64,000 nucleotides of DNA from Clostridia bacterium (GCA_017443405.1 JAFRXS010000208.1:625-64624), one strand, 5' to 3'. Positions 14,251-52,550 are shown, counted from the first letter of the stretch. Notes: generated by a model not told the origin, from the letters alone. Made by a program: numbers and translations.

Positions 14251-14257
14251 ATGGATG

Positions 14258-27764: not shown

Positions 27765-27778
27765 GAGGGAGACAGGAT

Positions 27779-36814: not shown

Positions 36815-38078
36815 GCCGGGACTCAAAAAACAGAATATAATAAAGCGTCACAGGTTTTTTATCGCCGCTTTTGTTGTTCTTATGCTTTACTCCGCGATCC
36901 CTGCGGGCTTCAAGCTCTGGAGCGTCGACGAAAACACTTTTATCTTCCATACCGTGGATTTTTCTCTGGGGTTCTGTACCCGCATGCTGCCCGGCGCGAT
37001 CTACGGACTGTTTTTCCCCGAGCGCTCTCCCGAAACGGCGAGCCTATTCGACAGCGTCATGCTCGTACTTCTGTTCCTGATGACCGCGTATCTCTGCGAA
37101 AAGCTGCTGCTTTCCGTCGGAGCCGGGGCAAGATCCGCGACGGCGACAGCGCTGCTGTTCTTCCTTACCGGACCCTGTACCTTCTCGATATTCGTCAACA
37201 GGCTCGGGATGATCGATTTTTACTGGATATTCTTCTCAGCCGTCGCGTTGATACTGCTTGAAAAAAAACGTCTCGTTTTCGCTGTTGTGCCGATCTTCTT
37301 CCTGCTCGTCCTCAACCACTACGCTTCTGTGATGGATTATATCCCGTGGCTGTGGATGATAATGCTGTACAAGATATTCTGCACGGAGGATAAAAAAGAG
37401 AAGAAGACCCTGTGGATCGTTCTGGCGCTGTCGGTCGCGGTCGCCGCCTCATCTTTCCTGTATTTCGTTATGTACGACAGGAACAATCTCGTTTATTCGC
37501 AGGAGGAGTTCGACAGCATACTGCTTTCGCGCGGCGCGGTCGATACGTTCTATTATGATACGGGGCTTTACCGCGATCTGCATAACGTTCTTGACGAATC
37601 GCACATTCAGACCGTCGAGGGGGGAATGTCCGGGGTCGGTTCGGCGCTGGCGTCGGTCCTGCAGCAGCTTCAGATCAGTTTGCAGGAAGCTCACCCTTAT
37701 ATTTTGCTGCCCCCGCTTATCGTGATCCTTCCCTGCCTTCTGGTATTATTAAGTTTTGTTGTTTCGCGGCGCCTCAGTGAAGAGAACAGAGGTAAAAAGC
37801 TGCTGCTGACTGTTTCGCCGATACTGTTTTTGCTGTCGATCGCCGGCGAGTGCCTGCTTTCGACCGATCTCATCAGATGGCTTGACCACGCTTATATATG
37901 TTTCTTTGCCTTTATCCTGTACGTTGTCTATAAGGAGAAGGACGCGTGCGCGGATCATTTCAGGTCGGTCTTTGATAAGGTGCCCGCGCCTTCGTGTTTC
38001 GTGTATTTTCTGTTCTATACGTTCGCCGTCTTCGATCCTTATATCGACGGCGTAGGCACTGTGTTCTGGACGTCATGA
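36801..38078 (+). CDS. polytopic membrane protein, tandem paralog 3 of 4
   Basis: ORF 36789..38078, with an ATG at 36801. Motifs: VDFSLGFCTRMLPGAIY, TGPCT, GMIDFYW, HYAS and STDLIRWLDHA. Confidence 0.6.
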   Translation: MNPLEPGLKKQNIIKRHRFFIAAFVVLMLYSAIPAGFKLWSVDENTFIFHTVDFSLGFCTRMLPGAIYGLFFPERSPETASLFDSVMLVLLFLMTAYLCEKLLLSVGAGARSATATALLFFLTGPCTFSIFVNRLGMIDFYWIFFSAVALILLEKKRLVFAVVPIFFLLVLNHYASVMDYIPWLWMIMLYKIFCTEDKKEKKTLWIVLALSVAVAASSFLYFVMYDRNNLVYSQEEFDSILLSRGAVDTFYYDTGLYRDLHNVLDESHIQTVEGGMSGVGSALASVLQQLQISLQEAHPYILLPPLIVILPCLLVLLSFVVSRRLSEENRGKKLLLTVSPILFLLSIAGECLLSTDLIRWLDHAYICFFAFILYVVYKEKDACADHFRSVFDKVPAPSCFVYFLFYTFAVFDPYIDGVGTVFWTS

Positions 38079-39328
38079 AAAAAGCTTTTGTCAAGCACCG
38101 GTACTCGGTCGGCGTATTCGCGTTCCTGCTGCTGCACTCTTTTCTCGTGTCGGGCGGAGCGAAGCCGTGGAGCAACGATTTTGTGACCTACTCGTTCCAC
38201 GCCGTGGATTTCTCCATGGGCTTCTGCACGCGCATACTGCCCGGAGCGGTGTATAAGCTCCTTGTCGGAAAATGGAGCATGGAAGCGGTCAACGCCTTTG
38301 ACTCCGTTTTTATGATACTGCTTTTCGCCGTTCTTTCCGTTTTCTGTGAGAAGCTCATCCTCGGCGTCGGGAAAAAAGACAGGCTCGCTTTTCTGCTTGT
38401 GGTACTGCTGTTCCTGACCGGTCCGTGCACCTTCCCGATGTACATTATCGAGCTCGGGATGATAGACGTCTGGTGGGTGTTCTTCACCGCCGCGGCGGTC
38501 GTTCTGCTGTCGTGCAGACGCCTGTTTCCGCTGGTTGTCCCGATAGGCGCTCTGTGCGTTACGATACACTTTTCGGCTATGTACACCTTCGTTCCGCTCA
38601 TAGTTCTGCTTATCCTATATAAATGTGCTTCGGAGCAAAATAAGAAAACAAAGGCTGCGCTTTTCTCCGTCGCCGTCCTTACGGCAGCGGCAGCCTGCGC
38701 GACGGCTGTCTACTTCCTTGTAAACGAAAAGAACAACCTCGTCTATACCCGCGAGGAGTTCGACGCCGTACTCGCTTCGCGCGGCGTGACGTTTTTCGAT
38801 TATTACGATTACGCTTTTTACGGTTTTATCTCGGACGCGCAGCCGCGCCTCGTGGAGGCGATGTCGTCATCGGAACCGGTATCTTTTATCCAGCGTGTCA
38901 TGCAGCAGATCAGCATTAATGCTTCCACTCTGGAATTCGCCACAAAGCTGTACGTACTCGTTCTGATGATCCCCGCCGTCGTTCTGCTTTTCGGATTTGT
39001 CTTTACTGCGGTGAAGGGCAGGAGCGGCAAAGCCGAAAAAGCCGTATTGCTTTCAGCTCCCGCGCTGTTCGTCGTCTCACTCGGCTTCGGCTGGCTGTTT
39101 TCGACTGACGTGATCAGATTCCTCGGTCACAGCTTCCTCGGTTTGTTCACATTCGTTATGTTCGTTATTTATATCGATAATAAAGACAGGAACGCGGAAA
39201 ACGGTCCGTCCGAAAACAAAGATCCCGCGTCGTATTTTACCGATGTTTTCCGGCGTATAGATCCGAAAATAACGTTCATTTACTTCGCGATGTACGTTTT
39301 GACGGTATGGGAACCGTACAGGACATAA
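38075..39328 (+). CDS. polytopic membrane protein, tandem paralog 4 of 4
   Basis: ORF 37994..39328. The ATG at 38075 (MKKAFVKHRYS) forms an ATGA overlap with the paralog 3 stop. Motifs: VDFSMGFCTRILPGAVY, TGPCT, GMIDVWW, HFSA and STDVIRFLGHS. Confidence 0.6.
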   Translation: MKKAFVKHRYSVGVFAFLLLHSFLVSGGAKPWSNDFVTYSFHAVDFSMGFCTRILPGAVYKLLVGKWSMEAVNAFDSVFMILLFAVLSVFCEKLILGVGKKDRLAFLLVVLLFLTGPCTFPMYIIELGMIDVWWVFFTAAAVVLLSCRRLFPLVVPIGALCVTIHFSAMYTFVPLIVLLILYKCASEQNKKTKAALFSVAVLTAAAACATAVYFLVNEKNNLVYTREEFDAVLASRGVTFFDYYDYAFYGFISDAQPRLVEAMSSSEPVSFIQRVMQQISINASTLEFATKLYVLVLMIPAVVLLFGFVFTAVKGRSGKAEKAVLLSAPALFVVSLGFGWLFSTDVIRFLGHSFLGLFTFVMFVIYIDNKDRNAENGPSENKDPASYFTDVFRRIDPKITFIYFAMYVLTVWEPYRT

Positions 39329-39342
39329 GGCAGGTGTCAGGC

Positions 39343-40173
39343 ATGAAAAAATATATCAATATGCTCGTCGGCGCTCTGATGATATCCGCCTGGGTAGTGG
39401 CGGAGATCTATCTTGAGCTCAAGCTCGAAAGGGCGGAGACCTGGCTGTATATCTCCGGGGTCCTGTTGTTCTTCGTGTCGGCAGGTTTCTGCCTGTTTAT
39501 GAAGGACCTGAAAAAGGCGATGATCGTATCCCTTTTCTGCGCTGCGGTCATGTGCGTTTTGTCGCGCGGACTTATCTGGACGGCGCTTCCCGTCGTTATA
39601 ATGTTCTGGGAATACAGGTGCGTCTCGGACAGGCTCAAGGGCGAAAACACGGCCTTTCACGCTGTGGTATTTACCGCTTTATCTGCGATATATGCGGCGG
39701 CCGCCGTTACGCGTATCGTGACCGCTTCCCCCAAAAGCGGGGCTCCGTCAACAAGATTTTTCGCCGTCGGCGATATTTGCGTCGCGGTCATTCTTTTCGC
39801 TGCGTTCGTCTTCCTCGCCATTGTCTGCGAGGGGCGGAAAAAACGCGAGTCGACGCCGGCAACAAAGAAAAACAGCCGGCCGGGCAAAAAGGGCGGCGAT
39901 AAGGCGGTCATCTCGCGCTTCCCGATAGGGTATAAAGAAATGTATATCCAGTGCGCCGCGCTTCTGGCGCTGAGTATGTGGGTCTGCTTCGCGCCCGGCG
40001 TGCTCGGCTACAGATACACGCTCAGGATGACGCTTTACCCGTGGCTCATGTTCGTCTACCTGACGCAATGCCGCGACAGGGCGCTAATGGGAGTTCTCGG
40101 TAAGATCAGGTCCCGCGGCCTTGAGATAGTCGCCTCTGACGGGCCGGAGCCCGCCTCTGCGGAAGAACGGTAA
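39343..40173 (+). CDS. polytopic membrane protein (orphan)
   Basis: ORF 39307..40173, with an ATG at 39343 (MKKYINMLVGAL) 14 nt after the upstream stop. It has about 6 TM helices and a Lys-rich loop (RKKRESTPATKKNSRPGKKGGDK). Confidence 0.5.
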   Translation: MKKYINMLVGALMISAWVVAEIYLELKLERAETWLYISGVLLFFVSAGFCLFMKDLKKAMIVSLFCAAVMCVLSRGLIWTALPVVIMFWEYRCVSDRLKGENTAFHAVVFTALSAIYAAAAVTRIVTASPKSGAPSTRFFAVGDICVAVILFAAFVFLAIVCEGRKKRESTPATKKNSRPGKKGGDKAVISRFPIGYKEMYIQCAALLALSMWVCFAPGVLGYRYTLRMTLYPWLMFVYLTQCRDRALMGVLGKIRSRGLEIVASDGPEPASAEER

Positions 40174-41078
40174 TGGCAAACGTTAAAAATAAGGGCTCAG
40201 GTCCCGCCCGCCGGGGTCCCGGCGGCAAATACGGTAAAGGTCAGAAGACGGCAGCCGTTCGCCCGGAGTCGTCTCGCGTCGAAAAAAGACCCGCCGTGAA
40301 AACGGTCTCCCGGAGGGATATAATAAAAAGAGCGTCATACGCTCTGATCGTTATCGCTCTTTGTTTGGTCTGGGCGCTTTCTTACAGCGGTCTGAAGACT
40401 ATCGGTGGTTCCGAGGGAAGGAATACGGTCGTTGCTTTCATCCTTTTTGTTCTCGGCGCGATTTCATGTTTTTTGTTCCGCCCGCTATACGTTTCCCTGC
40501 CTCTTGCCGTGGGTTTTTTCTCGGCGATGATACTTGTAAGAAGCGATTTGATCTTCTGCGCCCTTTGTCCCGCCGCCGTCTGTCTTTACCGCAGATGCCT
40601 GCGTGAATGCGGACGGTCACGCCCGTCAAAATATCTCGCGATAGGCGCGGGCGTTCTCGCAGCCGTTTGCGTGCCGGTCCCCATGTCGGTTCTGGCGTCG
40701 AACGGGGAGTTTTACGGTTTGTCTCATATCCCTCAGGTCTACAGAACGGGGGAGATGCGCTCGCTCGTTCTTATGGCGGCGATCTATATCGTCGTTCTCG
40801 CCGTCACGGTCTTTGTCAGGAGCCCCGCGCCGGAGAAGATCGGTCACGTTTATCTTTACGTTTTGTGCCTTGTTTCTCTGTTTGAGACGGCGGTATATTA
40901 TCATCCGACCGTCAACACGGACAATTTCTACTTTACCTATCTGCCGTCGCTGCTGCTTTTTTTCGCGGCGGTCGGCATGCCGTCGCCGGGAGTTGTACGA
41001 GCGTTGAAAAAGCTGCGTGAGCGCGTCGCGGGACCGCCCGCACCCGCTCCGGCGGACGAAGCGCAAAACCCCGGCTGA
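40173..41078 (+). CDS. polytopic membrane protein with basic Gly/Lys/Arg-rich N-terminal tail (orphan)
   Basis: A TAATG overlap links it to the upstream gene. The N-terminal roughly 55 aa (MANVKNKGSGPARRGPGGKYGKGQK...) are followed by about 6 TM helices. Confidence 0.5.
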   Translation: MANVKNKGSGPARRGPGGKYGKGQKTAAVRPESSRVEKRPAVKTVSRRDIIKRASYALIVIALCLVWALSYSGLKTIGGSEGRNTVVAFILFVLGAISCFLFRPLYVSLPLAVGFFSAMILVRSDLIFCALCPAAVCLYRRCLRECGRSRPSKYLAIGAGVLAAVCVPVPMSVLASNGEFYGLSHIPQVYRTGEMRSLVLMAAIYIVVLAVTVFVRSPAPEKIGHVYLYVLCLVSLFETAVYYHPTVNTDNFYFTYLPSLLLFFAAVGMPSPGVVRALKKLRERVAGPPAPAPADEAQNPG

Positions 41079-41090
41079 CCGGACAACCTC

Positions 41091-41135
41091 GAAAGACGGC
41101 AAAACCCCGCTAACCGCGGGGTTTTGCCGTCTTTC
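41091..41135. terminator. 20-bp perfect hairpin between the convergent operon ends (no clear U tract)
   Basis: GAAAGACGGCAAAACCCCGC (41091-41110), loop TAACC, GCGGGGTTTTGCCGTCTTTC (41116-41135). Confidence 0.6.
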
Positions 41136-41144
41136 GGATGACAT

Positions 41145-43067
41145 TCAGCGCCGCGGTATCCTTATCATATAACCGACGTCGCTTTCGGTCACCTCACAGT
41201 CATAGTTCGTTGTCCAGTATTTAAGCCGGTCTTTCGTCGGGTCGTTCACGTCAGGCCCGACCTCGAACATGCTGTCGACGAAATTGCCGTATTTATACCG
41301 CAGCACCGAAAGGTTCGTTATGTTGAAAAAGCCGCGGCACTCATATTTCGGTATATAAACATATTCCGGGAATTTATCCGGGTGCAGTTTCCAGTAAAGG
41401 AGCTGACGCGATTCGAAGTCCCTGTCCACGTACCACGTGCTGTAACAGGCGTAGGGTCTGTCGACGTAAAGATACAGCCACGCGTAATCGTGCACGTAGA
41501 ACGCGCCGTTCCCATTGTCCTTTATCGCGTCCATATCGTCCAGCAGCTTGTCGTAAATCTCCGCTGCCGAGCTTGTCGTCAGTATCCCCTTCATCGGTCC
41601 GCGGTCAAGTTTCGTGTCGAGCTTTTCATCGTTGAAATCGCCGTAGCGGTACTCAAAATAAGGGTACCGCGTTTCATATATGAAGGTACCGATCTCTCCG
41701 AGCGGCGCCGAGACGGCGACGAGACATAGAGCGACGACTGCTGCGCGGTTTAATAATATAATAGCTTTCCCTTTTGCGCTTTTTCCGCCCGCGTCTTCTC
41801 TTTCTTTATTGTCGGTCCTGATCTCGCCTATGATCTTTTCGATCATGATCAGCACCGCGGGGGCGACGAATACCCCGCCCAGCAGGAAGCCGAGAACATA
41901 AGCGTCCGATGAGATATCGAAAAGCTCGGAATACACGAAACCGCTGAGCAGCCAGAACAGCAGGGCTTTATTGTTTTTTTTGTCTTTAAGGAGCAGCCAC
42001 GCGAAAAGCCCGAACAGGAACAGGGGGATATAGCGGGGAATGGTCGTGACGAGCAGCCATTTCTCTGTCGCGCAGTCGAGATACAGCTTGTTTATATGGA
42101 TCAGGAAAACGATATTGAAAACGCCTGCGACGATCAGATAGACCGGTCTGCGTTTGAGCCTTTTTATATCAACGAGGACTATCAGGAAAAGAGCCGCTTC
42201 GATGATATAATAGACCGGACCCATGATATATACGGCGGTATACCAGTCATTTGCTATGAGGGTCTGAGGTCTGCCGGAAAGGACCGGGAAAATGTATTCG
42301 GAGTCCGTAAAGAAATTCGGAAGGGCTTCGATATACTCTTTGAGCGTTCCCCTTGTGAACATAAAGGTCAGGAAGACAGCTGCCGCAGCGGCGACGCCGG
42401 CTGTGACGAGAAGGAACGTCTTTAAGCTCAGCAGTCCCGGTTTTCTGCGGTACTTCGGGAAACACGCGCGGATAACGACCACGGCGGCGTATATGAAATA
42501 TACGACCGCGAGCAGCGGTTCGCTCAAGACCGCGCAGGCGGCGACGACTCCCGCGACGATATAGCCGGGCGTTCCGAGCGGCTTCCCTGCGAACAGGAGC
42601 GCGCAAAGTATCGCGCAGAACATGATGCTCTCGGTGTAATAGCAAAGATCGGGGACAAAGACGAAATGGCAGAAGGTCAGCGAGGCTATCAGCGCCGTTA
42701 TCCCGTGCTCGCGCAGCCGTATGAACAGAAAGACCGAAACCGCGAGCTGACAGCAGACGAACAGCCGACGCGCGTACAGCAGCATCCCTTCGGTTCCGAA
42801 CAAAGAGTAATATAGCTTTACCGGCAGGTATATGAACGGAGAGGAAAACTGAGATACGTGCCACTCGTCTATGAGCAGTCTGTCGCCGAAGAACATCCTG
42901 TGCGGGAAATTAAGATAAAAGGTCTCGTCTATATAACCGAGCCCGCGCCCTGCGAGGATGAACAAATAGACGGCGAGCGCGGTGAAGCAGACCGCCGCGA
43001 ACGGGTACAGCAGTTTTTTATCGTTTATCGCGGAGATGATGCCGTTGATCCGTTTATTTCGTTCCAT
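41145..43067 (-). CDS. GT-C-like polytopic membrane protein with C-terminal extracytoplasmic domain (paralog G1 of 6)
   Basis: A 640-aa protein. An Asp-Glu motif follows TM1 directly (GLGYIDETFYLNFPHRMFFGDRLLIDEWHVSQF). About 11 TM helices come next, then a roughly 200-aa soluble tail with GPMKGILT, WLYLYVD and PEYVYIP. Confidence 0.55.
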   Translation of the reverse strand: MERNKRINGIISAINDKKLLYPFAAVCFTALAVYLFILAGRGLGYIDETFYLNFPHRMFFGDRLLIDEWHVSQFSSPFIYLPVKLYYSLFGTEGMLLYARRLFVCCQLAVSVFLFIRLREHGITALIASLTFCHFVFVPDLCYYTESIMFCAILCALLFAGKPLGTPGYIVAGVVAACAVLSEPLLAVVYFIYAAVVVIRACFPKYRRKPGLLSLKTFLLVTAGVAAAAAVFLTFMFTRGTLKEYIEALPNFFTDSEYIFPVLSGRPQTLIANDWYTAVYIMGPVYYIIEAALFLIVLVDIKRLKRRPVYLIVAGVFNIVFLIHINKLYLDCATEKWLLVTTIPRYIPLFLFGLFAWLLLKDKKNNKALLFWLLSGFVYSELFDISSDAYVLGFLLGGVFVAPAVLIMIEKIIGEIRTDNKEREDAGGKSAKGKAIILLNRAAVVALCLVAVSAPLGEIGTFIYETRYPYFEYRYGDFNDEKLDTKLDRGPMKGILTTSSAAEIYDKLLDDMDAIKDNGNGAFYVHDYAWLYLYVDRPYACYSTWYVDRDFESRQLLYWKLHPDKFPEYVYIPKYECRGFFNITNLSVLRYKYGNFVDSMFEVGPDVNDPTKDRLKYWTTNYDCEVTESDVGYMIRIPRR

Positions 43068-43069
43068 TC

Positions 43070-44962
43070 CTATTTTTTCCTTATAACCTTGACCGTGTAT
43101 CCGACATCGCTTTGTGTGACCTCGCAGTCGAACAGGGAAAGTATGAGCCGGAGTCTTTCCGCAGCCTCTGACCCGTTGTCGAGGAAGCCCGAATAATAAA
43201 ACTTGGGGATGTAAACGTATTCCGGCGTTTTCTCGGGATTCAGCTCCCAGTAATCGATCTGCCTTGGGTCAAAATCTTCCGCGATGAACCAAGTTGCGTA
43301 ACAGGAATACGGTTTGTCTGTATAAAGGTATGCCCAGGCGAACAATTCGTAAACGTAAACGGGACCCGTCGCGTTTTCTCTGATAACGTCAAGGTCGGAA
43401 AGCATCTTATTATACCGGTCTCCCGTTTCCGGAAGAGTGTAGATCCCCTTGAAAGGACCGGCGGAGAGCTTGTACGACAGATCTGGTGAAGGTGACTTAT
43501 AAGCCCCGTTGTAAGCTGAAAAAGAATCGTCAAATTCCTCGGTCCTTTCGCTGACGTTCTCAAAAAGCAGAAAGTCTTTCTCGAACAGCAGGGAGGCAGC
43601 CTCGCAGACGGGGTGCGCCCAGATGAGGACGCATAGCAGCGCGCAGACGGCTTTTTTGACGGGAAAGCTTCGTTTTTTATCCTTATTTGCGTCCGCGGCG
43701 GCTTCCGCCGCGGATGCTCTTATTTCGTCGAGCAGAGCTTTCGCGAGTATGAAAACGGCGATATTCGATATGACTCCGCCGAGCATGCATACCACAAGAT
43801 AGTTTTCGGAGGAGACGTCCATCATCGCCGAATACAGTATACCCGCCGCGTAGAACGCAAAAAACCGTTTGTATTTGCTCTTGTTTTCGATCAGCAGACA
43901 GCAGAACGCGCCGAAGATGAAAAACGGAATATGCCTCCAGAAATACATGAGCTTCGAGGCGAAGCCCATTTTGATAAGTATGCAGGCATACGTCGCGATC
44001 GCCAAAACAGCCGCGGCGGTGATATAGACAAGTCTGTGCTTCAGCCTTTTTCGGTCGGCGAGGACGGCTGTGAACAGTACGGCGTCCGCTATGAAGAAAG
44101 GAAGCCAGATCTTTCCGAGGATGTCAAACAGATCGAGGCTGAACAGGTTCTGTTTTCCGCCGTTGAGGAGCGGGAACTGATACTCGGAGTCGGTAAAGAA
44201 ATTCGGCAGGGCGGCGAGGTATTCGCTCAAAGACCCTCTTGACAGAATAAATGCGAAAAACGCCGCGGCGGAAACAACGACTCCCGCGGCGATGAACAAA
44301 AACGGTTTAAGATCGAGCAGATAGAGCGGTTTTATTTTCTTCTTAAAAATGAGAGATACAATGACTGCTATGACGTAGATAAAAAAGAAAACCGCGAGCA
44401 GCGGCTCGCTGAGCACGGCGGCACCTATAAGAAGACCGGTAATAATCAGCGTGACGGGGCGTTTGGGCTCTTTTCCGGTGAACAGAAGCAGGCAGATAAG
44501 GGTGCACGACATAAGGCTCATCGTGTAATAGCTGAGAGCCGGGCAGTTCATTACGAGATAGTGGCAGTACAGTAGAGAGCCTGCGGCAGCCGCGAAGCCG
44601 TATTTCCGCAGACGGAAGAACGCGAACAGCGAGACCCCGAACTGCGCCGCGAGATACAGATATCTGAAAGCCAGAACGATCCCTTCGGTGCCGAACAGGG
44701 CGTAATAGATCCTGAACGGTATATAGATAAGCGGCGCCGCGAACTGCGACACGTGCCATTCCTCAATAAGCAGTCTGTCGCCGAAGAACAGTCTGTGGGG
44801 AAAGGTCAGATAGACGGCTTCGTCGACCGTTCCGAGTCCCCGGTGTATATACCACACCATATAGGCGGCGAGCAGAACAAATGCTGCCCCCGTTGCGATA
44901 TACAGAGACTTATCGCGAAGTGTCGACATGATCGATCCGTTTTTTCGGCCTTTTTCAGACAT
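43070..44962 (-). CDS. GT-C-like polytopic membrane protein (paralog G2 of 6)
   Basis: ORF 43070..45025. The ATG at 44962 (MSEKGRKNG) gives an 8-nt ATGTCTGA overlap with the upstream stop. Motifs: GLGTVDEAVYLTFPHRLFFGDRLLIEEWHVSQF, GPFKGIYT and PEYVYIP. Confidence 0.55.
   Translation of the reverse strand: MSEKGRKNGSIMSTLRDKSLYIATGAAFVLLAAYMVWYIHRGLGTVDEAVYLTFPHRLFFGDRLLIEEWHVSQFAAPLIYIPFRIYYALFGTEGIVLAFRYLYLAAQFGVSLFAFFRLRKYGFAAAAGSLLYCHYLVMNCPALSYYTMSLMSCTLICLLLFTGKEPKRPVTLIITGLLIGAAVLSEPLLAVFFFIYVIAVIVSLIFKKKIKPLYLLDLKPFLFIAAGVVVSAAAFFAFILSRGSLSEYLAALPNFFTDSEYQFPLLNGGKQNLFSLDLFDILGKIWLPFFIADAVLFTAVLADRKRLKHRLVYITAAAVLAIATYACILIKMGFASKLMYFWRHIPFFIFGAFCCLLIENKSKYKRFFAFYAAGILYSAMMDVSSENYLVVCMLGGVISNIAVFILAKALLDEIRASAAEAAADANKDKKRSFPVKKAVCALLCVLIWAHPVCEAASLLFEKDFLLFENVSERTEEFDDSFSAYNGAYKSPSPDLSYKLSAGPFKGIYTLPETGDRYNKMLSDLDVIRENATGPVYVYELFAWAYLYTDKPYSCYATWFIAEDFDPRQIDYWELNPEKTPEYVYIPKFYYSGFLDNGSEAAERLRLILSLFDCEVTQSDVGYTVKVIRKK
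43599..43655. repeat. 57-nt block identical to 45493..45549
   Basis: GCCTCGCAGACGGGGTGCGCCCAGATGAGGACGCATAGCAGCGCGCAGACGGCTTTT occurs in both G2 and G3, offset by 1894 nt. Confidence 0.9.
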
Positions 44963-46862
44963 TATATTTTCTCCCGAGGATCCTGATGGTATATCCGACT
45001 TCGCTCGTTTCGACCTCGCACTCAAACAAAGAAAGCGTTTTCTCCAGCCGCTCGGCAGCCTCCGGGTAGAAGTCGTGGAAACCCGAATGGTAGATTCTCG
45101 GTATGTATATGTATTCCGGCGATCTTTGAGGGTGCAGGTCCCAGTATTCTATCTGCCTCGTTTCGAAATCAAGCGGTATGAACCACGCGGTATAAGCGGA
45201 GTACGGCTTGTCAAGACTCATATACATCCACGAAAACAAGCCGAAAACATATACGGGGCCGGTCGCTTTATCGCGGATCGCGTTCAGATCCCTCAAAAGC
45301 GCGTCGTACTTCTCCGCCGCCTGAGGCAGGGTGTATATCCCCTTGAGCGGACCGGCGGTCAGCTTCTCAGACAGATCCGGCGACTCGCTGCCGTAAGCCC
45401 CTCCGTAAACCGAGAAGGAGTCGACGTACAGCTCGCTCCTGCCGCAGATGTTCTCAAACAGAAGAAAATCCTTTTCGAACGCAAGGGAGGCCGCCTCGCA
45501 GACGGGGTGCGCCCAGATGAGGACGCATAGCAGCGCGCAGACGGCTTTTGCCGGAATACGAAGGTTTTTGCGATTATTTATCTTTATTTCCGTATCCTGT
45601 CCGGACGCTTTTATCTCGTCGAGCAGTGCTTTTGCGAATATGAACACGGCGATATTCGATATGACTCCGCCGAGCATGCAGACCACAAGATAGTTTTCGG
45701 AGGAGACGTCCATCATCGCCGAATACGGTATCCCCGCCGCGTAAAAGGCGATAAGCCTTTTGTGTTCCTTTTTGTTTTCGAGCAGCAGGCAGCAGAACGC
45801 GCCGAAGATGAAAAGCGGAATGTGCCGCCAGAGGTACATCAGGCGCGACGAAACGCCCATCCGTATCAGTATGCAAATATACGTCGCGATCGCGAGAACG
45901 GCAGCAGCGGCGATATAGACGAGCCTGCGCTCAAGTCTTTTCCTGTCCGCGAGAACGGCGATGAACAGTACCGCGTCCGCGATAAAGAACGGCAGCCATA
46001 TCTTTGACAGGACGTTGAAAAGACCGGCGTCGAAAAGGTTCTGTCCGCCGCCGCTGAGCAGCGGGAAACGGTATTCGGAGTCGGTGAAGAAGTTCGGCAA
46101 GGCGGAGAGATATTCGCTCAGAGAACCCCTTGAAAGCAAAAAAGCGAAAAAAGCCGCGGCGGAAACAACGATTCCCGCGGTGATGAATAAAAACGATTTA
46201 AGATCGAGCAGATAGAGCGGTTTTCTTTTCTTCTTGAGTATCAGAGATACCGCGACTGCGATAACGTAGATGAAATAAAACACGGCGAGCAGCGGCTCGC
46301 TGAGTACCGCCGCGCCGGTGAGCAGACCGGTAATCAAAAGCGTGAGCGGTTTCTTTGGCTCGTCGCCCGTGAACAGAAGCAGGCAGATGAGCGTGCACGA
46401 CATCAGGCTCATCGTGTAGTAGCTCAGAGCCGGGCAGTTCATCACGGTGTAGCGGCAGTACATCAGAGAAGCAACGGCGGCGATGAAACCGTATTTCCTC
46501 AGCCGGAAAAACGCGAAAAGCGAAACGCCGAACTGCGCTATAAGATACAGATACCTGAAGAAAAGTATTATGCCCTCCGTACCGCGCAGCGAGTAATAGA
46601 TCCTGAACGGAAGATACACAAGCGGTGCGGAGAACTGCGACACGTGCCACTCGTCTATCAGCAGTCTGTCGCCCTGAAGGAGCCTATGCGCGACGTTCAG
46701 GTACATGCTTTCGTCCATCGCGCCCATCCCGCGATGGATATACCATACCATATAAGCGGCGAGAAGCGCGAAGCAGCCGAGTGAGATCCCGTAAAACAAA
46801 GCGGCGTTCCGCCGCGTGAGCGGAGCGCGTAATTTTTCGATCGTCGCGCTGTTTTTTGTCAT
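44955..46862 (-). CDS. GT-C-like polytopic membrane protein (paralog G3 of 6)
   Basis: GMGAMDESMYLNVAHRLLQGDRLLIDEWHVSQF, GPLKGIYT and PEYIYIP. It is very close to G2 through the TM core. Confidence 0.55.
   Translation of the reverse strand: MTKNSATIEKLRAPLTRRNAALFYGISLGCFALLAAYMVWYIHRGMGAMDESMYLNVAHRLLQGDRLLIDEWHVSQFSAPLVYLPFRIYYSLRGTEGIILFFRYLYLIAQFGVSLFAFFRLRKYGFIAAVASLMYCRYTVMNCPALSYYTMSLMSCTLICLLLFTGDEPKKPLTLLITGLLTGAAVLSEPLLAVFYFIYVIAVAVSLILKKKRKPLYLLDLKSFLFITAGIVVSAAAFFAFLLSRGSLSEYLSALPNFFTDSEYRFPLLSGGGQNLFDAGLFNVLSKIWLPFFIADAVLFIAVLADRKRLERRLVYIAAAAVLAIATYICILIRMGVSSRLMYLWRHIPLFIFGAFCCLLLENKKEHKRLIAFYAAGIPYSAMMDVSSENYLVVCMLGGVISNIAVFIFAKALLDEIKASGQDTEIKINNRKNLRIPAKAVCALLCVLIWAHPVCEAASLAFEKDFLLFENICGRSELYVDSFSVYGGAYGSESPDLSEKLTAGPLKGIYTLPQAAEKYDALLRDLNAIRDKATGPVYVFGLFSWMYMSLDKPYSAYTAWFIPLDFETRQIEYWDLHPQRSPEYIYIPRIYHSGFHDFYPEAAERLEKTLSLFECEVETSEVGYTIRILGRKYNV
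45493..45549. repeat. 57-nt block identical to 43599..43655
   Basis: Exact copy of the block at 43599..43655. Confidence 0.9.
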
Positions 46863-46863: not shown

Positions 46864-47976
46864 TCAGCCTCCGAAGCGGTCGCAGGCGTCTATTATCCGT
46901 TCGATCTCTTCACGGGTAAGCTCCGGGAACAGCGGCAGCGTGACGCAGTGCGCGGCGTGATACTCGCTGACGCCCAGCGGAAAGCGGGGAGCGGGAACGT
47001 CCCCGAACGCTTTCATCAGATGGCAGGGGAGCGGGTAATGGACGCGGCAGTCTATGCCGAGATCGCTCATGTGCCGAAGGAAACGGTCGCGTTCGCTGAC
47101 GTGTATGACGTACAGATGCCGCGCGGGGGAGGAATCCTCATTGTATTTCTGTTTCACGATAAGCGGATTCGTTATGCCGCGGTCGTAGATCCCGCTTATC
47201 TCCCGGCGTCGTTGGAGAGCCCCGTCGAGATGCCTAAGTTTGACTGAGAGAATTGCCGCCTGGATATCGTCCATCCTCATATTGAAGCCGACGTCGGAAT
47301 GATCTCCGTCCGCCGTTGTGCAATGCGTCTTGAACGAGTTTATAAGCTTGATCTTCTCACGGTCGCCGGATACGACGCAGCCCGCGTCCCCGCACGCGCC
47401 GAGATTTTTGGTCGGATAAAAGCTGAAGCAGCCCAGTTCACCGAGCGAGCCGGTCTTCTTGCCCTTATACAGCGCGCCGTGAGCCTGGGCGCAGTCCTCA
47501 ACGACGGGTATGCCGTGCGCGTCGGCTATGCCTTTCACCCGGTCAAAGTCGAACGGCACGCCGTAGAGATGCACGCCGACTATCGCCTTTGTCGCTTTCG
47601 TTATCCTTTTTTCGAGATCGGCGGGATCGATCTCCCACGTGTCGGGGTCTATGTCGCAGAATACCGGCGTCGCTCCGTTGTAAACGGCGCCCCACGCCGT
47701 CGCGACAAAGGTATTCGAGGGTATTATGACTTCGTCGCCTTCCCCTATGCCGAGCGCCTTGAGCGCAAGGAAGACCGCGTCGGTGCCGTTGTCGACGGCC
47801 GCTGCGTATGAAACCCCGCAGAAAGCCGCGAAGTCCTTTTCAAATCCCTTTACGAAGCGCCCGTTGCAGAAGTCGGCCGTCCCGAGGACTTCTCCCGCGG
47901 CCCTGACGTATTCGTCGTAAAGGCGCCTGTGCTGCCTGCTCAGGTCGCAGAACGGTATGGGTACTTTATTCATCAT
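46864..47976 (-). CDS. DegT/DnrJ/EryC1/StrS-family PLP-dependent sugar aminotransferase
   Basis: IPFCDL, AVDNGTDAVFLALKALGIGEGDEVIIPSNTFVATAW, VEDCAQAHGA, and FSFYPTKNLGACGDAG carrying the PLP Lys. Confidence 0.85.
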   Translation of the reverse strand: MMNKVPIPFCDLSRQHRRLYDEYVRAAGEVLGTADFCNGRFVKGFEKDFAAFCGVSYAAAVDNGTDAVFLALKALGIGEGDEVIIPSNTFVATAWGAVYNGATPVFCDIDPDTWEIDPADLEKRITKATKAIVGVHLYGVPFDFDRVKGIADAHGIPVVEDCAQAHGALYKGKKTGSLGELGCFSFYPTKNLGACGDAGCVVSGDREKIKLINSFKTHCTTADGDHSDVGFNMRMDDIQAAILSVKLRHLDGALQRRREISGIYDRGITNPLIVKQKYNEDSSPARHLYVIHVSERDRFLRHMSDLGIDCRVHYPLPCHLMKAFGDVPAPRFPLGVSEYHAAHCVTLPLFPELTREEIERIIDACDRFGG

Positions 47977-48916
47977 TCAACAGACTTTCCTCGACAATAT
48001 AACGCGGTCTGTTTTTTGAGTTCAGACCCGAAGAGTAAATATATTCCCCGAGTATCCTCAGCGCGAAAAGAAGCATCGCCGCGACAAGGAAAACGCAGGA
48101 TAAAACGAGAGCGGTCGAGGGGAAACCGCCGCGGCAGACTTTGACGAGCGAACAGATGAAGCCGGCGACCGACAGGAGAAAGCTCGCAAGGCTCATAAGA
48201 CCGATAAGGCGTATCGGCGCGCTGCTGTAGGAGGTGACCGCGCCGACGGCCATGCGGAAAAGCGATTTGAAATTATAGTGCGAGCTCCCCGCCTCGCGCG
48301 GCTTTCTGTCGTGGCAGACCACGCTGTGCTTAAAGCCCAGGAGCGGCACCTCGGCGGGCAGGAAAACGTCCGATCCGCCTCGGTCCAGCAGCGCTTCGAC
48401 CGCTCTTTTGCTCATCAGCCTGTACTGTGAATGCTCGCGGACGAATTCTATTCCGCAAAAGTCGATAAGACGGTAAAATGCACCGGACGTAAGGCGTGTC
48501 ATGAGCGGTTCGTTTCCGCGCGAGCGCCTGACGCCGTAGACTATCTCGCTGCCCTTTGCGTATTCTCTCAGCATTTCGTCTATTGCGTCCGTGCCGTCCT
48601 GAAGGTCGGCGTCAGTCGTGATCACGACGTCGGCGAAGCTTATCGCCGCCTCCATGCCCGCGAGGTTCGCGTTCTGCTCCCCGCTGTTGTGCGCCAGGCT
48701 TATGCCGGTGAACAAACTGTCGTTCTCGGACGCTTCACGGATGAGCTCCCACGTGCGGTCGGTCGAACAGTCGTTGACCATAAGGACGCGGCTCTTCGGA
48801 GAAACCAGCCCCTCGCCGATGAGCGCGCGGAGCTTTTCTTGCATGGCCGGAATGGTCAGCGGCAGCACTTCCGCCTCGTTATAGCAGGGGAGAACGATAC
48901 ACAGAGTATCCGCCAA
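47966..48916 (-). CDS. polyprenyl-phosphate glycosyltransferase, GT2 of the GtrB/ArnC/CsbB type
   Basis: IVLPCYNEAEVL, VNDCSTDRT, TTDADLQD and YRLMSKRAV are followed by two C-terminal TM helices and LGEYI...K.RPRYIVEE. This is the typical bactoprenol-P sugar synthase architecture. Confidence 0.8.
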   Translation of the reverse strand: MADTLCIVLPCYNEAEVLPLTIPAMQEKLRALIGEGLVSPKSRVLMVNDCSTDRTWELIREASENDSLFTGISLAHNSGEQNANLAGMEAAISFADVVITTDADLQDGTDAIDEMLREYAKGSEIVYGVRRSRGNEPLMTRLTSGAFYRLIDFCGIEFVREHSQYRLMSKRAVEALLDRGGSDVFLPAEVPLLGFKHSVVCHDRKPREAGSSHYNFKSLFRMAVGAVTSYSSAPIRLIGLMSLASFLLSVAGFICSLVKVCRGGFPSTALVLSCVFLVAAMLLFALRILGEYIYSSGLNSKNRPRYIVEESLLNDE

Positions 48917-48931: not shown

Positions 48932-50416
48932 TTATTTCAGATCGTATTTTTTGAGGATGAGAGGGAAGAAATAGCGGTTGACGAAAACGCTCAGGAACTG
49001 ATAGGCGGCGGCAAACGCCTCGGAGAAAAAGTATATGACGCCGTGGCCGAACAGACCCTTTACCGCGTCGGTGACGGTCTTTACCGCGAAGCTGTGCTCC
49101 TGCTCTTTGCCGTCGGCGCTCCCCTTTGCCCAGAAGCTCTGCCACAGGAAGAACGCCCTGACGACCTTGAGGTCGCGGTTCGGTATCTCCGAATAGTTTT
49201 TAAGGACCTTGTAAAGCGAAAACGCTCTTGCTTCCCTTTTGAGATCGAAGGTCCTCGCGTGGAGTTTTTCATAGTCCGGCAGGTTGTTGTACATGGCGGA
49301 CCGCGCGAAGGGCAGGTAAAAATTGAACTGGTACTGGGAAGTCCTTATCTTTTTCGCGAAGTCGACCGTCTGCTTGAAATCCTCCGTCTTCTCGCCCGGC
49401 AGGGCGATGATGAACGCCGTGACGGTATTGAGCCCCGCGTCGTAAGCGGCGTTGACGGAAGCGGCAGCGGCGTCGAGGTCCAGCCCCTTGCAAACCGTTT
49501 TCTGCATGCGCGGGCTGCCCGTTTCTATGCCGATGAAGACCCAGCGGCAGCCGACGGAATACATCAGATCGTAATCCTCTCTGCTGAAGATGTCCGCCCT
49601 GGTCTGGCAGCCCCATTTGATGTCGAGCCCGGAGTCGCGCAGCTTTTCGCAGAACTCTTTGAGCCACGCTCTGCCGGTGCCGAAGCACTCGTCGGCGAAA
49701 TAAGCCGCGCGCATATCGTATCCATCATGAAGCATCTTAAGCTCTGCGATAACGTCGTCTATCGGCCGCAGCCGCTGCCTGCACAGATGGAAATACGGGT
49801 TGTAGCAGAAGGTGCAGGACCCCGGGCAGCCCTTTGAGGCGTAGACGTGAAGGCCGTTTTTGCAGCCGTAAAAGGTCTCGAAATACTTGGCGACGGGCAC
49901 GAGCGACCAGTCGAGCACGCCGAGTTCGGCAAGATCCAGGAACGGGGCGCGTCGGTTCGTGACCATTTTGCCGTCCTTTAAATAAGCTGCCGAGCCGACG
50001 TCCTCTATCTTCCTTTTGCCCTCGTAGTACTCTATAATGTGGAGCCACGAGATCTCGCCCTCGCCGATCGAAACTATGTCGCCTATGCGGTTGTGAAGCA
50101 TCGATTCGGGCATCATGGAAGCCACCGGACCGCCGGCTACGACGTGCGCGCCGTGCTCTCTCGCCATTGAGGCTATGAACACCGCATCCTCGAGTCCCAG
50201 AGCGGATACCGTGGATATCCCGACTATATCGGGTCGCCTGAGCGTTAGCTCCTCCTTAAGGTCGAGGTGGTTCATCATTCGGTCGCAGATCCACGCTTCG
50301 TGCCCCCGCCGGTTCAGAAAGGTACACAACGAAATGGCCCCCAGCGGAGCGGCCGGCGAACCTGTGTATTTTTCTGCCATGGGGAGAACAAAGAGTATCT
50401 TCACGTTGACGTCCAA
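48932..50416 (-). CDS. B12-binding-domain radical SAM protein, short class (rSAM-A2)
   Basis: PLGAISLCTFLNRRGHEAWICD, PDIVGISTVS, AHVVAGGPVAS and ASKGCPGSCTFC. The start is uncertain (TTG at 50416 or GTG at 50404), and no strong RBS is visible. Confidence 0.8.
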   Translation of the reverse strand: MDVNVKILFVLPMAEKYTGSPAAPLGAISLCTFLNRRGHEAWICDRMMNHLDLKEELTLRRPDIVGISTVSALGLEDAVFIASMAREHGAHVVAGGPVASMMPESMLHNRIGDIVSIGEGEISWLHIIEYYEGKRKIEDVGSAAYLKDGKMVTNRRAPFLDLAELGVLDWSLVPVAKYFETFYGCKNGLHVYASKGCPGSCTFCYNPYFHLCRQRLRPIDDVIAELKMLHDGYDMRAAYFADECFGTGRAWLKEFCEKLRDSGLDIKWGCQTRADIFSREDYDLMYSVGCRWVFIGIETGSPRMQKTVCKGLDLDAAAASVNAAYDAGLNTVTAFIIALPGEKTEDFKQTVDFAKKIRTSQYQFNFYLPFARSAMYNNLPDYEKLHARTFDLKREARAFSLYKVLKNYSEIPNRDLKVVRAFFLWQSFWAKGSADGKEQEHSFAVKTVTDAVKGLFGHGVIYFFSEAFAAAYQFLSVFVNRYFFPLILKKYDLK

Positions 50417-50427: not shown

Positions 50428-50455
50428 TTGACTATAATTCAATTATCATTATAAT
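50428..50455 (+). promoter_or_regulatory. consensus sigma-A promoter for operon 3 (CotH side)
   Basis: TTGACT (50428-50433), 16-nt spacer, TATAAT (50450-50455). Confidence 0.6.
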
Positions 50456-50476
50456 ATATACAGAAGTTCATGTCAA
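50448..50476 (-). promoter_or_regulatory. consensus sigma-A promoter for operon 2 (rSAM-A2 side)
   Basis: On the minus strand: TTGACA (complement 50471-50476), 17-nt spacer, TATAAT (complement 50448-50453). Its -10 overlaps the plus-strand -10 within ATTATAAT. Confidence 0.6.
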
Positions 50477-50534: not shown

Positions 50535-52547
50535 GTGTGGCGATATGAAAAACGCCGAACAGCGCCCCGGGCGGAACGCTCTGTCGTTGTGAAGAATCAG
50601 CGGTCGCAGCGGACAAAAGGCTCCGCTCCGGTAAAAGACCGGCGACCGCCCGAAGCCGAGAGTCCAGACTTGAAGAAAAAAAGACCGACAGCGATGATAA
50701 TCGCCGCCGCGGCGCTGGTTCTCGCGGCGGCTATCGCCGTCGTCGTGTTTTTTTACTTTTACGGCAAAAACAGCCGCTCTCCGACGATCCTAGTGAATCC
50801 CTACGGCGGCGAACCTGATTCGCCTGATACGATATCGGTGAGGAACGAGGGCGATAGCTACCGTCTCGATCTCCCCGCCGACGCCGACCGGAAAAACCTT
50901 AAAGTCTGGTGGTATCCCGAGGAACAGAGCATGAGCGTCAACGGGAAGCAGCTCGCCTACGGCGAGTCGACCTCCGTTTTCGGCGTCAGGGACAGCTACT
51001 CGCTAACGTTCGGAGGTGAAAACTATTCCCTTAAACTGGAGCAGTCGCTCGACCTCCCCGCCGTGTTTCTTGTGACGGACTCACGAAAAACAGAATACCT
51101 TTTGGCCGACAAGGACAACAAGGAGCCCGGGCGCGCGGTCGTGCGCGAGAACGGCGAAGCCGTGATCGACGCGGAGCTCGAGCATATCAAGGGCAGGGGG
51201 AACCACTGGGACGAATACGGCGCGCCGGCAAGACTCGCCAGACCCTACAACATTAAATTTAAGGAAAAAACAGAGCTTCTGGGTATGGCGTCCGCCAAAA
51301 AGTGGGTGCTTAAGCCTACAGGCATCGTGGAGGACAACAGCGCCTACGCTCTGGCGCGCCGCATGGGGCTAAGCTTTACCCCCGAGCTGCGCAGCGCGGA
51401 CGTCTACCTCAACAACGTCTATCTCGGAAAGTATCAGATAAGCTCGAGCGTCCAGGTCTCCGGCAGCAGGGTCGACATCGCCGACCTTAAGGAACTTAAC
51501 GAAAAAGCGAACCCTTCCGTCGACTTTAAAACGCTTCCCAAAAGCGGCACGAGCGCGCCAGATGACCTGAGTCCCGGCTGCAGAAAATGGGTGGAGGCGC
51601 CGAACGACCCGGACGATATCACCGGCGGGTACCTGATCGAGGTCGACGATTCCGACCATTACGCCGAGGACGTTTCCGGTTTCATCACCGACCGCGGATT
51701 CTCCCTGGTGATCAAGGACCCAGAATACGCAACGCGCTCCGAGGTTGAGTATATCGCCGACTACTGGCAGGAAGCAGAGGACGCGCTGTATTCCGAGACC
51801 GGATATAATTCTCTGGGAAAGCATTACGGCGAGTATTTTGATATGGATTCTCTTGTAAGGATATATATCCTTCAGGAGATAACCAAAAACGCCGACTCCG
51901 GCGTCACGAGCTGCTTTTTCTACAAGGACGCGGGCGGAAAGCTTTTCGCCGGTCCCGCCTGGGATTACGACGCCGCGCTCGGCCTCGAGTACGAATACGA
52001 GGGGCTCGATCTCAACGATCCCGGGACCTGGTGGGTCAACCAGCGCGTGCGCGATTGGTGGGACGACTATCCGCTGCTGTTCTGCGCGCTTTATTCCCGC
52101 GAGGATTTCAGGTCGGCGGTGTTCGATATGTGGGAGGAAAACGCCGACGCCTGGCTGAGCGAAGATTATTTCTCGGAGCTTTACGCCTTCGGGGAGTCAC
52201 TTGCCGCGACGAGCGCCGGCGTGTTTTCGCAGAGAGGCGCGGCGTATATTGAGTCGCGGGACAGGGTGATCCGGTTCCTGAAAGAAAGAAAAACTGCTCT
52301 CGATCTGGGGTTTTCGCCCGACGCGGCTTACGTCCGCTACGACGCCGGCGGCGGGACCGGGCACATCTACGAGACCGCCATGTACAGGATCGGGGACGGG
52401 TACACGCTTAAGGAAAACGCATATGAAAAGGACGGCTCCGAATTTAAGGGCTGGAGCACGGTCCCCGGCGGAGAAGCAGAGTATCAGCCGGGCGACAGGA
52501 CGACCCTCGAAACGGGATATACCGTTTTTTACGCAGTTTGGGAATGA
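50535..52547 (+). CDS. CotH-family (atypical kinase fold) protein with N-terminal membrane anchor and C-terminal Listeria/Bacteroides-type repeat
   Basis: The TM anchor is MIIAAAALVLAAAIAVVVFFYF. The CotH-like core includes KPYNIKF, KKWVLKP, DVYLNNVYLGKYQ, YLIEVD and FFYKDAGGKLFAGPAWDYD. The C-terminal segment is YDAGGGTG...YEKDGSEFKGWSTVPGG...TVFYAVWE. The start is uncertain: TTG at 50670 or ATG at 50694 is more plausible than 50535. Confidence 0.65.
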   Translation: MWRYEKRRTAPRAERSVVVKNQRSQRTKGSAPVKDRRPPEAESPDLKKKRPTAMIIAAAALVLAAAIAVVVFFYFYGKNSRSPTILVNPYGGEPDSPDTISVRNEGDSYRLDLPADADRKNLKVWWYPEEQSMSVNGKQLAYGESTSVFGVRDSYSLTFGGENYSLKLEQSLDLPAVFLVTDSRKTEYLLADKDNKEPGRAVVRENGEAVIDAELEHIKGRGNHWDEYGAPARLARPYNIKFKEKTELLGMASAKKWVLKPTGIVEDNSAYALARRMGLSFTPELRSADVYLNNVYLGKYQISSSVQVSGSRVDIADLKELNEKANPSVDFKTLPKSGTSAPDDLSPGCRKWVEAPNDPDDITGGYLIEVDDSDHYAEDVSGFITDRGFSLVIKDPEYATRSEVEYIADYWQEAEDALYSETGYNSLGKHYGEYFDMDSLVRIYILQEITKNADSGVTSCFFYKDAGGKLFAGPAWDYDAALGLEYEYEGLDLNDPGTWWVNQRVRDWWDDYPLLFCALYSREDFRSAVFDMWEENADAWLSEDYFSELYAFGESLAATSAGVFSQRGAAYIESRDRVIRFLKERKTALDLGFSPDAAYVRYDAGGGTGHIYETAMYRIGDGYTLKENAYEKDGSEFKGWSTVPGGEAEYQPGDRTTLETGYTVFYAVWE

Positions 52548-52550
52548 CAG

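Follow-up and report, generated by a model that had tools for sequence, protein, structure and literature searches.

Tandem GT-C-like membrane proteins of a Clostridia bacterium and their candidate role in cell-surface glycosylation

Tandem genes and the predicted fold of their products

The 64,000-nucleotide (nt) stretch of DNA from a Clostridia bacterium (GCA_017443405.1, JAFRXS010000208.1:625-64624), called the window below, includes three adjacent genes, G1, G2 and G3, which encode large membrane proteins. A reading made earlier from the sequence alone described them as three tandem paralogs and assigned them to GT-C-like transferases. The three paralogous open reading frames (ORFs) were found as described, all on the minus strand; the number of paralogs in the window proved to be six rather than three when its ORFs were compared all against all by BLAST. 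The members of the family in the window are as follows (aa, amino acids; HMM, hidden Markov model).

41145–43067, minus strand: G1, ORF of 640 aa; D47-E48 codons at 42924–42929, GPMKG codons at 41586–41600; family HMM E = 1e-198
43070–44962, minus strand: G2, ~630 aa from the ATG at 44962; D-E codons at 44819–44824
44955–46862, minus strand: G3, ORF of 635 aa; D-E codons at 46710–46715
54499–56346, plus strand: G4, found by all-against-all BLAST of the window ORFs and the family HMM
56370–58217, plus strand: G5, found by the same BLAST comparison and the family HMM
58186–60054, plus strand: G6, found by the same BLAST comparison and the family HMM

The Asp-Glu (D-E) segments quoted earlier (YIDETFYL, TVDEAVYL and AMDESMYL) are present in the translations, as are GDRLLI(D/E)EWHVSQF and the tail motifs GP(M/F/L)KGI(L/Y)T and PEY(V/I)YIP of G1–G3. 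The motif W.YLY.D.PY was confirmed in G1 and G2 and not in G3, which has WMYMSLDKPY. G2 and G3 are 73% identical, and G1 shows ~40% identity to each of them; judged from the sequences, this likeness is a matter of homology and not of chance. In the alignment, G3 was identical to the NCBI protein IJM45_10440 from a metagenome-assembled genome (MAG) of a Clostridia bacterium. The longest listed ORF of G2 (43070–45025, 651 aa) opens at TTG; the true start is most likely the ATG at 44962, giving 630 aa, since a GGGAG ribosome-binding site lies ~8 nt upstream of it and this start overlaps the stop of G3 by 8 nt. The genes G4–G6, which lie in tandem downstream of two CotH genes on the plus strand, encode proteins 26–30% identical to G1–G3 that keep the D-E pair and the GPxKG motif and match the family HMM with E = 1e-128 to 1e-152.

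The AlphaFold2 model of G1, built on an alignment of 19 sequences, has a mean pLDDT of 79.6, a pTM of 0.82 and 13 transmembrane (TM) helices. TM1 (residues 17–39) is followed by the first external loop (EL1) with two helices (46–59 and 72–90), by 12 more TM helices, where about 10 had been noticed, and by a terminal alpha/beta domain (~457–640). The C-terminal soluble tail noticed earlier does exist, with a length of ~185 aa (residues 457–640) in place of ~200 aa. When the model was compared with the PDB by Foldseek, 18 of the 18 best specific matches were GT-C enzymes (structures of AglB, STT3, PglB, AftA, DPY19 and EmbB), with probabilities of 0.6–1.0 over 520–780 aligned columns; AglB 5gmy matched with E = 5e-3 and probability 1.0, and PglB 3rce with TMq 0.42. 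Below them, the list consisted of unrelated helical proteins with probabilities ≤0.16. This supports the GT-C-like nature proposed for G1–G3, and the modelled helices correspond in number (8–13) and arrangement to those of GT-C enzymes. A transporter or flippase identity of G1 was rejected, MOP, MFS and MATE proteins being found only as noise (probability ≤0.16, TM ~0.1) below the GT-C matches.

The loops were set from the helices of the model, and their charges were counted in 168 aligned family members. On the cytoplasmic side, all seven loops carry a net positive charge (21.3 K+R per 73 residues), while those of the opposite side are net negative or neutral (8.2 K+R per 132 residues). The topology comprises 13 TM helices with the N-terminus inside and both EL1 and the C-terminal domain outside. 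It is this positive-inside bias that places the C-terminal domain and the D-E pair, which starts the first loop after TM1, outside the cell, and the external location supposed for the motif is borne out.

The D-E pair directly after TM1 is among the best conserved elements of the family: in the 168 members, D47 is conserved at 97% and E48 at 94%. It is accompanied in EL1, the most conserved region, by R57 (97%), G61 (94–98%), D62 (89%), E68 (85%), W69 (95%) and Q73 (94%), and further along the chain by R100 (98%), Y143 (98%), P184 (97%) and S387 (97%). In the G1 model, all of these residues are located on the outer side. Members of the GT-C superfamily possess 8–13 TM helices and a DXD motif, or a modified one including DEX, in an external loop (PMC5836110). 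Both the helix number and an external D-E-x motif are found in the family of G1.

A similar acidic pair is present in PMT enzymes (GT39), where the Asp-Glu of loop 1 is essential for activity and a polyprenyl phosphate (Pol-P)-linked monosaccharide serves as the donor; Lommel et al. (2011, cited as reference 78 in PMC7801869) reportedly described, to judge by the title, 'a conserved acidic motif crucial for enzymatic activity' in PMTs. In this respect the family of G1 resembles PMT. Unlike PMT, it has no PMT or PMT_2 Pfam match and no detected MIR domain, its external domain is C-terminal and not located in a loop, and no PMT structure occurs in the 50 best fold matches.

The best structural matches, AglB, STT3 and PglB, are oligosaccharyltransferases (OSTs, GT66), which share with G1 the 13 TM helices, the inner N-terminus, the acidic residues of EL1 and the C-terminal external domain. 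This raises the question of whether the G1–G6 proteins are OST-, ligase- or polymerase-like enzymes, which would move a preassembled oligosaccharide as one block from undecaprenyl diphosphate onto a protein or a cell-wall polymer. We consider this unlikely. The family shows no sequence similarity to OSTs, neither WWDYG nor the wider pattern WWD[YWF]G occurs in any of the 168 members (0/168), and outside EL1 there is no second acidic loop motif conserved above 75%. In addition, the C-terminal domain is much smaller than in OSTs, without a recognisable fold match, and the fold matches also include AftA, DPY19 and Emb, enzymes with Pol-P-monosaccharide donors.

The C-terminal domain comprises ~150–185 aa in the family, with an alpha/beta structure in the G1 model, and includes the conserved residues G490, P491, K493, G494, T497, Y505, D511, Y532, Y558, P567, Y571 and G632. 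It had been described as belonging to no recognisable family, and the searches agree: no sequence match was found in Pfam or, with a 144-sequence profile, in the PDB, and Foldseek of the domain modelled alone (at a low confidence, pLDDT 61.6) returned just generic Rossmann-like methyltransferases with probabilities ≤0.15. A methyltransferase or SGNH reading was rejected, as the domain has no conserved Ser or His and its predicted external location would keep it away from S-adenosylmethionine (SAM). Between G2 and G3, the identity of this domain is 58%, compared with 71–85% in other regions; only the short N-terminal segment with TM1 is lower (44%). Apart from that segment, the domain is the most diverged part of a recent duplicate, which gives a hint, and not proof, that it may take part in the choice of the acceptor, as was supposed earlier.

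Sequence searches linked the family to no described group. Neither Pfam-A nor NCBIfam contains a family matching G1–G3 at E ≤ 1, and no Pfam-A GT-C family was found at E ≤ 0.1 to 1 in ~29 members including all six window copies. The suggested HMM comparison with YfhO (PF09586), PMT (PF02366), PMT_2 (PF13231) and the other Pfam GT-C families and DUFs gave no match. The refuting conditions set out earlier were all examined, and none of them overturned the GT-C reading. PDB chain sequences were not matched by a 3-sequence profile or by the 144-sequence profile at E ≤ 10, and hhalign of the latter with E. coli ArnT gave a probability of 3.9%. These Pfam, NCBIfam and PDB sequence searches also revealed no transporter or polymerase family. 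When 1.84 billion cluster representatives (clusters at 50% identity) were searched exhaustively with a profile, 3180 of them matched at E ≤ 1e-3 and 1078 at E ≤ 1e-30, and a word-indexed homolog search with a deep profile found 17 proteins. Where the sources, MAGs of Clostridia, Oscillospiraceae and Ruminococcus, give the members a name, it is only 'hypothetical protein', the exception being a fusion named 'acyltransferase' after its other part. The family is large and present in no database by name; it is new as a sequence family, while the kind of system is known. By their sequences, G1–G6 are to be placed outside every named GT-C family (ArnT, PMT, YfhO and OST).

Operon, proposed donor enzymes and gene neighbourhoods

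The genes G3, G2 and G1 are the last three of a six-gene operon on the minus strand, the elements of which are listed below in the direction of transcription, together with the divergent promoter (TM, transmembrane; PLP, pyridoxal phosphate).

50448–50476, minus strand: promoter, sigma-70-type TTGACA-17-TATAAT, 12/12 matches, driving rSAM-GT2-DegT-G3-G2-G1
48932–50416, minus strand: B12-binding radical SAM enzyme (rSAM) of the ~490-aa class, Pfam B12-binding and Radical_SAM; first gene of the operon
47966–48916, minus strand: GT2 of GtrB/ArnC/PgfS type with two C-terminal TM helices; NCBIfam PgfS 3e-42 and ArnC 2.7e-26, full length
46864–47976, minus strand: DegT/ArnB-type PLP sugar aminotransferase, Pfam DegT_DnrJ_EryC1 E = 4e-108
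41090–41136, no strand: inverted repeat with perfect 21-bp arms and a 5-nt loop, between convergent operons
50428–50455, plus strand: divergent promoter TTGACT-16-TATAAT, 11/12 matches

The operon opens with the B12-radical-SAM gene, followed by the genes of the GT2, the DegT aminotransferase, G3, G2 and G1. The junctions are gaps of 1–15 nt or short overlaps; the start codon of G3 lies 1 nt past the stop of the aminotransferase gene and is served by a GGAGG ribosome-binding site. The inverted repeat at 41090–41136 is likely to be a bidirectional terminator closing the G1 transcript. The two back-to-back promoters occupy one divergent intergenic region of 119 nt. The near-perfect sigma-70 sequences of this pair suggest that both operons containing GT-C genes are expressed together.

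The aminotransferase shows 32% identity to E. coli ArnB (E = 9e-53), and the GT2 aligns with E. coli ArnC over its whole length, the C-terminal TM helices included, at 26% identity. PgfS is the closest named family of the GT2, with a score far under the family cut-off (145 vs 500 bits). The rSAM has paralogs encoded at 26253–27764 and 60051–61517. We propose that the aminotransferase makes a nucleoside diphosphate (NDP)-amino-sugar, that the GT2 is the donor synthase and that the rSAM performs a sugar-tailoring step. A Pol-P-sugar synthase encoded beside a GT-C protein is what characterises Gtr-type systems, and the GT2 at 47966–48916 occupies this position.

The sequence-only reading had suggested that the transferases consume the donor made by the upstream GT2. 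This link appears well founded: the GT2 is a full-length enzyme of the ArnC/PgfS type in the same tightly coupled operon, and its pairing with a family member recurs in two of the loci outside the window where members were found (numbered L001–L021), namely L009 (an Oscillospiraceae MAG) and L016, the complete genome of the cultured Ruminococcus sp. JL13D9 (CP162392.1). It is this genomic context that suggests glycosyl transfer from a Pol-P donor by G1–G3. In JL13D9, the gene at 10001–12979 of locus L016 encodes the fusion protein already mentioned (992 aa, WP_407724241.1), which joins an AT3 acyltransferase (residues 11–385) to a GT-C-like family part (413–967). A GT2 gene whose product is 38% identical to the window GT2 is located directly upstream, a phosphoglucomutase gene is located downstream, and no radical SAM gene is present within 10 kb of the fusion gene. 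The sequence cluster of the fusion protein contains 145 members. This minimal module of a GT2 and a family member gives the strongest contextual support for a Pol-P-sugar-dependent transferase, and it makes JL13D9 a cultured, genetically approachable host that carries a family member.

The neighbourhood also bears on the OST-like alternative introduced above. It is favoured by the many members without an adjacent GtrB-like GT2. On the other hand, the recurrent neighbours of family members are Pol-P-monosaccharide synthases, which points to Pol-P-monosaccharide donors, and no initiating phosphoglycosyltransferase, Wzx flippase or set of repeat-unit glycosyltransferases was recognised among the cluster genes scanned.

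Genes of AT3 acyltransferases adjoin family members in the window, L001 and L014. In an Oscillospiraceae MAG (L010, 9718–11523), a fused gene encoding an HTH, a LicC-like nucleotidyltransferase and a LicA-like choline kinase is located directly downstream of a solitary member, which hints that phosphocholine decorates the same surface polymer. By analogy with the known roles of the AT3 and LicC/LicA families, the AT3 fusion and adjacency and the LicC/LicA-like adjacency point to a glycan as the probable acceptor. The rSAM genes of the type found in the operon adjoin family members in L001, L002, L008 and L012, and the rSAM association is limited to a subfamily. In L001, CotH genes also flank the family members, together with VTC and DUF4956 genes.

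These associations leave room for a different function, in which the GT-C-like scaffold moves a non-sugar group (a phospho-alcohol or an acyl group) or acts as a partner or translocator for the products of the radical SAM or AT3 enzymes. The unusual connection with B12-radical-SAM genes, the member fused to an AT3 acyltransferase, the one adjoining a LicC/LicA-like phosphocholine-activating gene and the lack of a sequence tie to a proven glycosyltransferase in our searches would fit such a role. It seems quite unlikely to us, as all structural neighbours are glycosyltransferases, the conserved acidic motif of EL1 is a GT-C hallmark (PMC5836110), and the radical SAM and AT3 associations are seen only in part of the family. 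The JL13D9 module does without a nearby radical SAM gene, and the KedN5-like 640-aa rSAMs of the window flank a GT2 resembling Dol-P-hexose transferases, which fits tailoring of the donor.

All taxonomically placed members in the sample belong to Clostridia (Oscillospiraceae, Ruminococcaceae and Lachnospiraceae). The GTDB relatives are Ruminococcaceae, Oscillospiraceae, Lachnospiraceae and Clostridia MAGs, and the isolate names point to the rumen, goat omasum and horse faeces. No mobile or phage-borne copies were found in a pattern scan of IMG/VR or by tblastn against phage and plasmid collections. Tandem arrays are common: L017 has seven copies, the window six, L001 four and L004 three. In L017 (a Clostridia MAG, 2453–14255), the seven consecutive paralogs of 596–647 aa have one orientation, and no other gene types occur between them.

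Proposed mechanism and comparison with known systems

It is probable that G1–G6 are extracytoplasmic GT-C-fold transferases using a Pol-P-linked amino-sugar donor. The following scheme builds on the fold, the topology, the motif conservation, the operon structure and the recurrent neighbourhood described above; within it, catalysis, the nature of the sugar, its flipping and its acceptor are inferred. In the cytoplasm, the ArnB-like aminotransferase would produce a nucleotide-activated amino sugar, which the B12-radical-SAM enzyme may tailor further. The ArnC/PgfS-like GT2 would move the amino sugar onto undecaprenyl phosphate (Und-P), the lipid-linked monosaccharide would be flipped to the outer face of the membrane, and each paralog would pass the sugar to an extracytoplasmic acceptor. 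The Asp-Glu pair, the other conserved residues of EL1 and R100 and Y143, located at the outer membrane boundary, could bind the donor phosphate or a metal and activate the acceptor, while the C-terminal alpha/beta domain over the active site probably helps to position the acceptor. As with serotype-specific GtrC enzymes, what sets the paralogs apart would most likely be the acceptor site, the linkage or the donor sugar. A cell-wall glycopolymer is the most likely acceptor; a surface protein is a less likely one.

Several observations weigh against this scheme. The Foldseek E-values are weak (5e-3 to 0.1) and the TM-scores reach only 0.3–0.42, so that, no single match being strong, the GT-C assignment is based on a match list that is exclusive and full-length. 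The best fold matches are OSTs, which use diphosphate-linked oligosaccharides and not monophosphate-linked monosaccharides, and there is no sequence tie to any characterised GT-C enzyme in Pfam, NCBIfam, the PDB profile searches or hhalign with ArnT. Many distant members are solitary, with no GT2 nearby (L019–L021). No 4,6-dehydratase or other source of a keto sugar for the aminotransferase was recognised in the window, and no flippase of GtrA, ArnE/F, Wzx, SMR or MATE type was recognised among the cluster proteins scanned. Between 41 and 61.5 kb, the spaces separating the genes and the operons are too small for an extra small gene; some known systems have their flippase encoded at another locus.

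The ArnB-ArnC-ArnT pathway transfers L-Ara4N from Und-P to lipid A, ArnT being an enzyme of the GT83 family with the GT-C fold. Like the G1 model, ArnT has 13 TM helices, an inner N-terminus and an outer C-terminal domain. The presence of an ArnB-like aminotransferase (32%), an ArnC-like Und-P glycosyltransferase (26%) and multi-TM proteins that carry an acidic loop and a C-terminal domain on the outside gives the operon the logic of arnB-arnC-...-arnT. The differences are that the family has no sequence relation to ArnT (hhalign 3.9%), which is absent from the top 50 fold matches, that no equivalents of ArnA, ArnD and ArnE/F were recognised, and that the window has three tandem transferases instead of one and an operon that opens with a B12-radical-SAM gene. 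A host of the class Clostridia is expected to be without lipid A.

Another close organisation is that of the three-component systems (GtrA/GtrB/GtrC, CsbB-YfhO, GtlA-GtlB, PgfS-PgfM1 and GT136), where a GtrB-like GT2 is likewise found in an operon with a GT-C-fold protein and where several paralogous GT-C enzymes could share one donor. A GtrB-like GT2 and a GT-C membrane protein in one operon are the hallmark of three-component glycosylation (PMC11127046, PMC5836110), and GT136 is a precedent for a sequence-orphan GT-C protein that founded a new CAZy family (PMC11127046). In contrast to these systems, the family has no Pfam match (YfhO and PMT_2 included), no flippase was recognised in the cluster, the arrays contain up to seven copies, as in L017, and a subfamily is linked to B12-radical-SAM enzymes and an orphan 420-aa membrane protein.

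One of these systems deserves separate consideration. In Streptococcus mutans, PgfS works with PgfM1 in the extracellular glycosylation of Ser/Thr-rich regions, and PgfM1 and PgfM2 carry a YfhO domain (PMC12041528). G1–G6 could similarly O-glycosylate surface proteins in regions rich in Ser and Thr, which would be a sub-case of the transfer from a Pol-P-linked amino sugar and shares its probability in part. The full-length match of the operon GT2 to PgfS (3e-42) and the secreted or anchored CotH/Flg_new proteins encoded beside G4–G6 speak for this possibility. It is nevertheless doubtful, since the family shows no YfhO match, the PgfS score lies at 145 bits against a cut-off of 500 bits, and no Ser/Thr-rich acceptor was noticed in the 36–52 kb translations, which no scan aimed at one has covered. 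The AT3 and LicC/LicA-like associations, given the roles of these families, point instead to a glycopolymer.

GT-C enzymes decorate teichoic acids, O-antigens, arabinans and glycoproteins outside the cell, and such decorations determine how phages and the immune system recognise a bacterium and how it resists antimicrobials. Most likely, G1–G3 place unusual sugars on the surface of a Clostridia bacterium from the gut or rumen. Thousands of sequence clusters without a Pfam or NCBIfam model are now tied to a GT-C fold, a candidate catalytic pair and a proposed cognate donor synthase, and the recognition of GT-C proteins gives a handle on the glycans in the envelopes of Oscillospiraceae and Ruminococcaceae from rumen and gut; to our knowledge, these glycans are largely uncharted. 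The arrays of up to seven copies, together with the link to B12-radical-SAM sugar tailoring, suggest that these bacteria bear variable and chemically unusual surface sugars.

The wider cluster in the window

The part of the window from ~26.2 to 62.7 kb is an unusually paralog-rich island. Besides the genes described above, it includes the following.

26253–34245, plus strand: sugar-tailoring block (490-aa rSAM, 640-aa rSAM, 241-aa GT2 and two 640-aa rSAMs)
29685–30410, plus strand: 241-aa GT2 resembling AglJ/Dol-P-hexose transferases, flanked by 640-aa rSAMs
34288–39328, plus strand: memD420, four tandem orphan membrane proteins of ~420 aa, 33–48% identical to one another
39307–41078, plus strand: two multi-TM proteins of 288 and 301 aa without a significant family match, ending the plus-strand membrane-protein operon
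50535–54461, plus strand: tandem pair of CotH-kinase-like proteins with 44% mutual identity, both with a Listeria-Bacteroides repeat (Flg_new) at the C-terminus
61546–62673, minus strand: AT3-family membrane acyltransferase, Pfam Acyl_transf_3/HGSNAT_cat, at the edge of the cluster

Seven B12-radical-SAM genes, four of the ~490-aa class and three of the ~640-aa class, are located within ~35 kb, at 26253–34245 (plus), 48932–50416 (minus) and 60051–61517 (plus). The ~640-aa proteins match the KedN5 family of methylcobalamin-dependent C-methyltransferases (1e-66 to 1e-72). The antisense ORFs at 27866–29116, 30344–32413 and 32314–34143 (minus strand, 416–689 aa) lie opposite the three 640-aa rSAM genes and are 29–31% identical to one another; they are best read as shadow ORFs of paralogs and not as separate genes. 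The order rSAM640–GT2(241)–rSAM640–rSAM640–rSAM490–family member–memD420 is shared by L003, L004 and L005. This conserved order suggests a second, radical-SAM-tailored Pol-P-sugar donor for some of the paralogs. In L003, two 640-aa rSAM genes are fused to encode a protein of 1288 aa.

The memD420 proteins have no Pfam, NCBIfam or PDB match. Their invariant residues are D56, G60, F61, D142, W145, S362, D364 and R367, and they adjoin GT-C-like family members in L003–L006 and L009. In hhalign with the GT-C-like family, they reached a probability of 69.5% over 254 collinear columns; memD420 could represent a distant GT-C-like core that lacks the C-terminal domain, or else a flippase. Together with the two proteins at 39307–41078, they are the remaining candidates for the flippase of the lipid-linked sugar.

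It is conceivable, and we advance this only tentatively, that the GT-C family, the B12-rSAMs, the AglJ- and ArnC-like synthases and the 420-aa proteins make up a system, so far undescribed, by which gut and rumen Clostridia decorate their envelope. In it, radical-SAM-tailored sugars (C-methylated or branched, and aminated) would be carried on polyprenyl phosphate and installed outside by fast-diversifying GT-C arrays. If true, this would imply surface variability of the kind seen in serotype conversion, a new CAZy glycosyltransferase family and new lipid-linked sugar chemistry.

The first of the two CotH-like proteins has an N-terminal membrane anchor, and the pair leads the plus-strand operon that runs into G4–G6. 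The Rfam search found no family at threshold anywhere in the window, cobalamin riboswitches included. Outside the island, a gene at 10563–12773 (plus strand) encodes a CHAP-domain protein with a type I dockerin. The presence of a dockerin on this protein suggests that the host is a cellulosome-bearing member of Ruminococcaceae or Oscillospiraceae.

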